From Escherichia coli (GTDB lineage Bacteria > Pseudomonadota > Gammaproteobacteria > Enterobacterales > Enterobacteriaceae), in NCBI RefSeq assembly GCF_024502345.1, contig NZ_JALDNN010000001.1: a DNA stretch of 64,000 bases. One strand, written 5' to 3'. Shown here in pieces: positions 33,840 to 34,758 of this stretch. Both the position numbers and the translations under genes were made by a program. The notes beneath the pieces are model-generated. The model worked only from the letters and a program-made list of their open reading frames with translations. It had not been told where the DNA came from and ran no database searches. Position 1 is the first letter of the stretch. Each line of letters starts with the position of its first letter.

Positions 33840-34758
33840 GAATCTTGACCTTTTTTGCTGTTATCGCCACTCCCTGCCGTGGAAGTCAGCTTAGAACAAT
33901 GTACTCCCCCAGGACGGTGTTTTGAAGGTCTGCAGAATAAGATTTTGCCAGAGGGGAAGGCTCGATTGTGCTGTTAATAACTTAATAATGACAAAATAAT
34001 GAGGTGTATATGCTTTATATGCAATGTTATATAGTGAATTGTTCTGATTCTTAATTGTAAGTCTGGTTTTTTTATCTGTAAGATAATTGTGTGAAAATGC
34101 CTCATTTAAGAATTCACTAATGAAACGCGATGATGATATTTCCGCATTACGGAGAGTTTAACAGCGTGATGATTTCCGAAGTGTCACAATGGGGGCAAGG
34201 TGTGAAACTATTGTTAAGCGGAATTAATGAATGAGGATGATGCTAATTAATTATTATTTAATATTCAAAAAGGTTTTGATGTGCTTATTAATAATAGAAG
34301 ATTACTTTGCCTAACATAACATAACTTTGCATCAGATAATTCGCAATGACCCTTATAAATAAAAGGTTTTTGGGGTAAAATGTTCGCATAAATGACGGAT
34401 CCCTGCTCTTGATGCCTCCTCACCATTGCTGTTTGTACGTGTTCGCGTATGACCAGCGATGCTGCACGAGAGTGGAACAAGGACTCACATTTACATTTAT
34501 ACAAACACGCGCATGTCATAAATAGAAAAGAGTGAGTAACTTAATAGATATGCGATCCCTGAAGATATATTCTGTGATCTACTTCAGGCATTATAACGGA
34601 ACAATGTGAGTCGCTTTTTTAGTGCAACTCATATGCATTTTTACTTTCGTCCGGGTTCCGGATGAAACTGCCAGGGAGGCACATTACAAATGGAATTGCT
34701 TGTTTGTGTGTGCACAGCATTAACCAGCTCAGTATGAGCCGCCAGTAAGTGATAATAT

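Follow-up and report, generated by a model that had tools for sequence, protein, structure and literature searches.

The DNA analysed here is a 64,000-nucleotide stretch of Escherichia coli (the window; NCBI RefSeq assembly GCF_024502345.1, contig NZ_JALDNN010000001.1), and our subject is the gap between two of its genes, alaA and lrhA. The genes lie at 32622-33839 on the minus strand and at 34759-35697 on the plus strand, respectively, and the gap between them spans exactly 33840-34758, or 919 base pairs (bp). LrhA is a repressor of flhDC (motility) that also affects fimbriae, RpoS and CRISPR-Cas. We consider it very probable that the gap is a shared control region from which alaA and lrhA are divergently transcribed, with no separate gene inside it.

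Results

Position and composition of the gap

An initial annotation of this DNA had described an AT-rich gap of about 920 bp between the divergent genes alaA and lrhA, and had called it the longest non-coding stretch of the window; both statements were borne out. Its guanine-plus-cytosine (GC) content is 37.9%, compared with 52.3% for the window. The DNA that separates the transcription starts has 33.3% and the lrhA leader 42.3%; values are as low as 28-34% across 33900-34400. The 919 bp contain no open reading frame (ORF) of at least 100 amino acids (aa), the runner-up in the window being 760 bp at 52399-53158. Among the K-12 equivalents it is likewise the longest intergenic gap, followed by lrhA-nuoA with 630 bp. 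The "many short inverted repeats" that the annotation had reported are at chance level: we counted 8, 4 and 1 pairs with arms of 6, 7 and 8 nucleotides (nt), where 200 dinucleotide-preserving shuffles of the gap had 8.4±3.9, 3.2±2.2 and 1.4±1.5.

The window is inverted relative to K-12, where the gap corresponds to 2406642-2407560 (near the locus, the K-12 coordinate is 2441400 minus the window coordinate), and the RefSeq entry of MG1655 has no annotation between alaA and lrhA. Nine substitutions and no insertions or deletions separate the gap from that of MG1655. Five of them are in 33950-34199 and the other four, at 34383, 34387, 34417 and 34434, are near the lrhA start and in the 5' hairpin of its leader; none falls in the last 120 nt of the lrhA leader, its regulatory part. 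When a 1.2-kb query across the gap was compared with complete E. coli genomes it matched 5425 of 5426, with an identity of at least 95% in all but one, and alaA and lrhA were the only annotations beneath it. In E. coli SCPM-O-B-12142 (NZ_CP144928.1, 3806-5706) the gap is interrupted by an IS1 some 166 bp upstream of alaA (near window position 34006). The IS1 is directly followed by elaD remnants and ISKpn26, and what appears to be a deletion has removed lrhA, the entire nuo operon and the genes as far as elaD.

Transcription starts and promoters

The published table of transcription start sites (TSSs) has only two starts in the gap, on consecutive rows between nuoA and yfbR: one for yfbQ/alaA with a 52-nt untranslated region (UTR) and one for lrhA with a 371-nt UTR (Kim 2012). 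On the window they fall at 33891 (minus strand) and A34388 (plus strand), divergent and 497 bp apart. The 51-nt flank reported for the lrhA start is identical to window 34338-34388 except for two single-nucleotide polymorphisms, and the alaA flank matches exactly. Independently of Kim 2012, an "unusually long 371 nt 5' UTR" was described for lrhA (Melamed 2023), and the primer for the lrhA fusion in that study starts at ATAAATGACGG, which is window 34388. The transcripts and promoters of the gap are as follows.

33840-33891, minus strand: alaA 5' leader, 52 nt from the TSS at 33891 to the ATG, with an AAGG Shine-Dalgarno (the complement of 33849-33852)
33898-33926, minus strand: alaA core promoter, with -10 TACATT at 33903-33898, a 17-bp spacer and -35 TTCAAA at 33926-33921
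34352-34388, plus strand: lrhA core promoter, with CTTATAAA at 34352-34359, a -35 region TTATAA at 34353-34358 and -10 TAAAAT at 34376-34381
34388-34758, plus strand: lrhA 5' UTR, 371 nt or about 40% of the gap, on which several post-transcriptional regulators act

The idea in the initial annotation that the gap holds regulatory DNA and/or a long 5' leader was therefore right on both counts, given that 371 of the 919 bp are the lrhA 5' UTR and the rest is the divergent promoter region. The -10 and -35 hexamers of alaA are nearly invariant in our alignment of 27 Enterobacteriaceae, and the lrhA -10, 7 nt upstream of the start, is kept in 20 species. Both promoters are too weak for a consensus scan, which gave three matches in the gap (3.0±1.7 are expected by chance) and missed them both. 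The -35 region of lrhA is within a conserved near-palindrome (34340-34365), whose sequence is CTTATAAATAAAAG in E. coli; in one Enterobacter the palindrome is perfect, CTTATATATATAAG. This near-palindrome may be an operator, for example for LrhA autoregulation.

The lrhA leader

Several regulators have been placed on the lrhA leader by experiment, and their sites, published or computed here, are listed with the predicted folds.

34405-34473, plus strand: stable 5' hairpin; the predicted fold of the first 86 nt has -27.7 kcal/mol, z = -2.8
about 34643-34728 (-117 to -31), plus strand: CsrA peak from crosslinking, immunoprecipitation and sequencing (CLIP-seq), peak_226 of Potts 2017, identical in sequence to the window
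34669-34679, plus strand: ArcZ-complementary site UGCCAGGGAGG, facing ArcZ nt 66-76 (the 5' end of processed ArcZ) in a computed 11-bp helix
34679-34713, plus strand: predicted hairpin with the conserved AAAUGGAAUUGCUU (34688-34701)
34708-34719, plus strand: RprA/McaS-complementary site GUGUGCACAGCA, with computed helices and a conserved CACAGCA core
34740-34746, plus strand: UhpU pairing site, CGCCAGU with ACUGGUG of UhpU, adjoining a weak Shine-Dalgarno at 34747-34752 (ATG at 34759)

The leader forms chimeras with the small RNAs (sRNAs) UhpU, ArcZ, RprA and McaS in RNA interaction by ligation and sequencing (RIL-seq) on Hfq, and an lrhA-lacZ fusion is repressed by UhpU, ArcZ and RprA (Melamed 2023). 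McaS accounts for the most chimeras with lrhA, yet it leaves the fusion unaffected (Melamed 2023). Pairing is proven for UhpU, where a compensatory pair of mutations restores repression (Melamed 2023). The oligonucleotides of that study identify the bases involved: in the lrhA-M1 gBlock, C34743 is replaced by G, and UhpU-M1 has C in place of the pairing G of ACUGGUG. The window has the wild-type C34743. A UhpU site at 34419-34447, the best prediction by energy, was wrong, and it was the published mutant sequences that gave the true one; unrestricted RNAduplex predictions were uninformative in general, returning long spurious duplexes. For the shared site, the computed helices are 11 bp between RprA nt 62-72 and 34709-34719 and 12 bp between McaS nt 45-56 and 34708-34719.

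Two RNA-binding proteins act on the same leader. RNAs of 150 and 350 nt from "ig-lrhA-alaA", which are part of the lrhA transcript, co-purify with Hfq, and lrhA mRNA accumulates in an hfq mutant (Bilusic 2014). In a csrA mutant, both the ribosome footprints and the RNA of lrhA are raised (Potts 2017). Two conserved GGA motifs of the leader (34675-34677 and 34692-34694), 17 nt apart, are both inside the CsrA peak, and the second is at the loop edge of the predicted 34679-34713 hairpin. The leader thus resembles CsrA-bound leaders, in which two or more GGA motifs, unpaired or located in a hairpin loop, are expected close to the translation start and 10-63 nt from each other. It likewise has the marks of a long sRNA-targeted leader, namely a distant mapped TSS with a matching promoter and sRNA complementarity near the ribosome-binding site, with compensatory genetics from the literature. 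As a whole it folds with a minimum free energy of -111.1 kcal/mol (z = -3.0 against shuffles). The regulatory sequences of the lrhA leader are intact in the window.

Conservation across the Enterobacterales

A scan anchored on AlaA, with one genome per species, yielded 80 loci. In 63 Enterobacterales species an LrhA orthologue is divergently upstream of alaA, across a gap with a median of 928 bp (range 499-2511) that is AT-rich in all 63. Four loci of Pectobacteriaceae depart from the norm of about 0.9 kb: Pectobacterium and Brenneria have a gap of about 500 bp, and that of Dickeya, at the pecT locus, measures 1591 bp.

In the alignment of 27 Enterobacteriaceae, conservation is concentrated in four parts: 33840-33950 with the leader and promoter of alaA, an island spanning 34200-34265, 34330-34381 with the lrhA promoter, and the final ~75 nt of the lrhA leader. 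At the end of the leader AAAUGGAAUUGCUU and GCACAGCA stand out, the latter being more than 90% conserved. Poorly conserved are 33950-34200 and 34400-34680. A CTTATAAA-N-TAAnAT motif was found in 20 species and predicts lrhA leaders of 336-449 nt; the length of the leader is kept while most of its sequence is not.

The predicted leaders of 19 species have a mean folding z of -1.7. We rejected the 5' hairpin of the E. coli leader as a conserved feature, given that the first 100 nt have a mean z of -0.13 in these 19 species. Across 24 species, RNAalifold gave no consensus structure for the final 105 nt of the leader, and we therefore read the conservation there as that of binding motifs in single-stranded RNA. 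Between the CACAGCA site and the Shine-Dalgarno, a small hairpin seems to switch from one of two alternative helices to the other across genera.

The DNA between the two starts

Between the starts are about 460 bp of AT-rich DNA, with three parts that differ in conservation.

33933-33949, no strand assigned: element CAGAAnAAGATTTTG, just upstream of the alaA -35 and conserved in the alignment
33950-34199, no strand assigned: AT-rich spacer between the promoters, poorly conserved (column identity 0.2-0.5), with the two small ORFs of the initial annotation
34200-34265, no strand assigned: conserved island that precedes the lrhA start by 125-190 bp

The element at 33933-33949 is a candidate Lrp-type site, as it agrees by eye at 12 of 15 positions with the Lrp consensus YAGHAWATTWTDCTR. 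The island follows the pattern GTGAAA-N4-ATGTTAAG-N5-TTAATGAA ... AATTAAT-N3-TTATTTAATATT, with a column identity of 0.58-0.71 in Enterobacteriaceae and 0.45-0.61 order-wide, comparable with that of the lrhA promoter, and its core TGAAA..GTTAA is retained in Erwiniaceae too. Because the ORF that overlaps it is broken in relatives, the island is conserved as DNA and not as protein, and it is probably a transcription-factor site. Compared by eye with the CpxR, OmpR, RcsAB and LysR T-N11-A motifs, it showed only weak and non-decisive resemblance.

Several regulatory inputs have been published for this DNA. The "920 bp-long lrhA-alaA" spacer has been presented as typical of long spacers with many factor sites (Shimada 2014). 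Also published are a chromatin immunoprecipitation (ChIP) signal of Lrp together with activation of lrhA by Lrp, an OmpR ChIP peak in the alaA-lrhA spacer and the binding of CpxR to the lrhA promoter, as well as binding and autoregulation by LrhA in Pantoea.

A conserved hairpin in the alaA leader

The start of the alaA mRNA holds a structure of its own.

33866-33890, minus strand: conserved hairpin, alaA mRNA nt +2 to +26, predicted to fold as GCU-G-ACUUCC / ACGGCA loop / GGGAGU-GGC

Its ACGGCA loop and inner UUCC/GGAA pairs are nearly invariant, and the outer pairs covary. For 40 Enterobacterales sequences from four families (Enterobacteriaceae, Erwiniaceae, Yersiniaceae and Pectobacteriaceae), the share of paired cells is 86%, compared with 72% in shuffles. 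The covariation score of 0.399 (0.18 in shuffles) was reached by none of 500 shuffles, and controls slid along the alignment scored 0.07-0.13. Six of the nine pairs have changes on both sides, that is, compensatory changes. An RNA is favoured over a DNA palindrome because a frequent U·G pair is valid only on the alaA sense strand.

The hairpin has no match in Rfam, its motif is absent upstream of avtA and alaC, and the literature that we searched contains no description of it. It might stabilise the 5' end of the mRNA or serve as a binding site. That the loop and inner pairs are nearly invariant while the stem covaries suggests recognition by some protein or RNA that would control the synthesis of alanine transaminase or the stability of its mRNA.

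Fragments of the lrhA leader

The 3' ends mapped by Term-seq in the gap are all inside the lrhA leader and on the lrhA strand (Adams 2021). Those at K-12 2406933 and 2406927 (window 34467 and 34473) are at the 3' foot of the 5' hairpin and delimit leader fragments of about 80-86 nt. A further end at K-12 2406691 (window 34709, -50 from the ATG) delimits a fragment of about 322 nt; it has a Rho score of 1.06, rated "No", and a borderline intrinsic-terminator score of 3.75 (Adams 2021). No 3' end is listed for K-12 2407000-2407699 in that data set.

We asked how far such fragments (~80-86 nt, ~322 nt, or the Hfq-bound 150- and 350-nt RNAs) could act in trans, for example as sponges for McaS, ArcZ, RprA or CsrA, and find this unlikely as an account of the gap. 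The 3' ends are reproducible and the fragments discrete; the RNAs co-immunoprecipitated with Hfq are barely visible in total RNA (Bilusic 2014). The 322-nt fragment would keep the ArcZ site and both GGA motifs. For McaS, with the most chimeras and no effect on lrhA-lacZ, "McaS inhibition" has been suggested by the authors themselves (Melamed 2023). However, all fragments would use the lrhA promoter and do not amount to an independent gene. The hairpin that defines the 80-nt fragment is specific to E. coli, as noted above, and the end at 34709 cuts just before the core RprA/McaS site (34712-34719). Fragments are also the expected by-products of decay triggered by sRNAs. The ends at 34467 and 34473 are most simply explained as processing products protected by the hairpin, and we infer that the leader fragments in general are products of decay or processing.

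AT-rich DNA as a possible remnant

Low GC content and the largely unconserved stretches 33950-34200 and 34400-34680 would also suit silent DNA coated by H-NS or another nucleoid protein, either horizontally acquired or a degenerate remnant. That this is the main nature of the gap is very improbable. The low GC content would fit an H-NS-silenced island, but the variable or horizontal distribution of such islands is not seen: synteny and gap length are kept in the 63 species, and the region is in all but one of the 5426 E. coli genomes. The conserved blocks coincide with mapped promoters and RNA-binding sites, and both alaA and lrhA are actively transcribed from within the gap. In the table of Shimada 2014, H-NS is marked on other spacers and not on lrhA-alaA.

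Small ORFs and the question of a hidden gene

The initial annotation had left room for an unannotated sRNA or a leader peptide, and had pointed to two small ORFs. Both exist, with corrections: the first is truly at 34120-34161 (its coordinates had been off by one), and the second, 34166-34234, is only the GTG-internal part of a 34-codon ATG ORF at 34130-34234. As that annotation had remarked, these small ORFs lack a convincing Shine-Dalgarno. No known transcript carries them because they lie between the divergent starts, upstream of the lrhA start on its strand. In E. albertii, a second Escherichia species and Citrobacter, starts are lost and stops gained. These observations give no support to a leader peptide.

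The same holds for other frames. An 84-aa ORF at 34265-34519 (minus strand), antisense to the lrhA promoter and early leader, is intact in K-12 and interrupted in E. albertii, Escherichia sp. and Citrobacter, and is almost certainly spurious. None of the gap ORFs tested keeps its frame in relatives, including four upstream ORFs (uORFs) in the lrhA leader, which are broken in E. albertii and/or Citrobacter; none of the leader uORFs is conserved beyond Escherichia. One of them, the uORF at 34662-34748, is part of the lrhA transcript, covers the sites of ArcZ and RprA and ends 10 nt ahead of the lrhA ATG. Its identity in three Escherichia species only reflects the invariance of the RNA-binding region where it is located, and in Citrobacter its frame is interrupted by stops.

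An unannotated sRNA gene fares no better. There is no third TSS (Kim 2012), and the 3' ends are confined to the lrhA leader. An Rfam scan of 33000-36500 (E <=1) had no match in the gap and only chance-level microRNA-type matches outside it, and a terminator scan gave a single match, in the alaA coding sequence, and none in the gap. None of the marks of an independent sRNA gene (its own start, a defined 3' end outside the leaders, conservation or an RNA family) was found. The one reservation concerns the lrhA leader, from which Hfq-bound fragments have been recovered (Bilusic 2014). The initial annotation had itself named transcript maps with only the alaA and lrhA promoters and leaders as refuting its proposal of an sRNA or leader peptide, and by that standard the proposal fails.

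That one of the candidate small ORFs present in the sequence (34120-34161, 34130/34166-34234 or the uORF 34662-34748) is translated and controls lrhA or alaA is the least credible of the alternatives, given the broken frames, the absence of a good Shine-Dalgarno and an MG1655 RefSeq annotation that places validated small proteins elsewhere (baxL, ypdK) and none in the gap.

Other features of the window

Around 51400-54727, the elaD-yfbK-yfbL-yfbM-yfbN-yfbO-yfbP segment is rearranged or largely missing relative to K-12, and the ORF-free 760 bp at 52399-53158 result from this. In the lrhA-nuoA gap (35698-36327), Term-seq 3' ends map to K-12 2405082, 10 nt before the nuoA ATG, and to 2405297. The stop codon and 3' end of lrhA are covered by a further CsrA CLIP-seq peak, peak_225.

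Discussion

The reading of the gap as a divergent control region has an experimental and a computed basis. Published experiments provide both transcription starts, the compensatory pairing of UhpU, repression by ArcZ and RprA, the crosslink of CsrA, the binding of Hfq and the 3' ends. To these we add the ArcZ, RprA and McaS complementarities, the pattern of conservation and the lack of signals of coding or of an sRNA gene. The assignment of individual factors to the conserved patches of DNA is our inference.

In the arrangement that we propose, the 52-nt alaA leader and a sigma-70 promoter with its start at 33891 form the left end of the control region. The AT-rich DNA upstream offers factor sites for both promoters and has two conserved patches, 33933-33949 and 34200-34265. 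From the lrhA promoter (start 34388) comes the 371-nt leader, which sets LrhA synthesis post-transcriptionally. CsrA binds around the two GGA motifs, between -117 and -31. The Hfq-dependent sRNAs ArcZ (-90 to -80), RprA (-50 to -40) and UhpU (-19 to -13) pair within the last 90 nt, lowering translation and/or mRNA stability, and McaS pairs at the RprA site without repression. With less LrhA, flhDC is freed from repression, and the effect feeds into the rpoS circuit.

Several points weigh against this reading, or at least against its completeness. We leave the factor that may bind the island at 34200-34265 unassigned. About 280 nt of the lrhA leader (34400-34680) are poorly conserved, although the leader stays long. 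A distal alaA promoter, TTAAGA-17-TATAAC at 34054-34026 on the minus strand, has been predicted (Shimada 2014); its sequence is present in the window and moderately conserved, and it has no start in the Kim 2012 table. There may also be weak extra promoters or translated small ORFs under special conditions.

We suggest, tentatively and with more doubt than confidence, that the gap may hold something beyond what has been described: the alaA hairpin may be a regulatory RNA element that has gone unrecognised, or fragments of the lrhA leader may act in trans as sponges for McaS, ArcZ or CsrA, or both. If such sponges were real, they would couple the motility, biofilm and RpoS circuits.

There is little out of the ordinary about the gap: the published transcript maps and the work on the lrhA leader already account for it, and no re-annotation is needed. 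What is new here is the spacing of about 0.9 kb in 63 species, the conservation of the lrhA promoter and of the last ~75 nt of the leader, and the covarying alaA hairpin. It is of interest that one long leader integrates at least three repressing sRNAs as well as CsrA and Hfq, downstream of a spacer that takes inputs from Lrp, OmpR, CpxR and LrhA. The spacing and a leader of 336-449 nt have been kept where most of the leader sequence has not, which leads one to ask what role the "empty" 280 nt play.

From the perspective of known systems, the closest is the lrhA 5' UTR of K-12 (Melamed 2023 eLife; Bilusic 2014 RNA Biol; Kim 2012 PLoS Genet), which is the same locus as the gap in the window. 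The sRNAs and sponges derived from 5' UTRs (Adams 2021) share with lrhA the discrete 3' ends in a long leader and the Hfq-bound fragments. Unlike in those cases, a trans role of the lrhA fragments is putative, and the hairpin that defines the fragment is unconserved.

The lrhA-alaA spacer has been grouped with csgD-csgB and nanC-fimB (Shimada 2014). Like rpoS, flhDC and csgD-csgB, lrhA combines a long leader that binds Hfq, several sRNAs and CsrA with a long AT-rich spacer for many factors. Unlike at these loci, the validated sRNAs of lrhA all repress, and the pairing sites are clustered in the last 90 nt, with no role assigned to the 280 nt upstream. To our knowledge, no activating sRNA is known for lrhA.

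The LrhA orthologues HexA of Photorhabdus, PecT of Dickeya, RovM of Yersinia and PigU of Serratia offer a last comparison. ArcZ reportedly controls hexA and pecT. Outside the Enterobacteriaceae, the gaps upstream of these genes can be aligned only at the promoter and leader of alaA and over part of the upstream island. The hexA, pecT, rovM and pigU loci nevertheless share with lrhA the divergent alaA and a long gap, of 741-1105 bp in most families.

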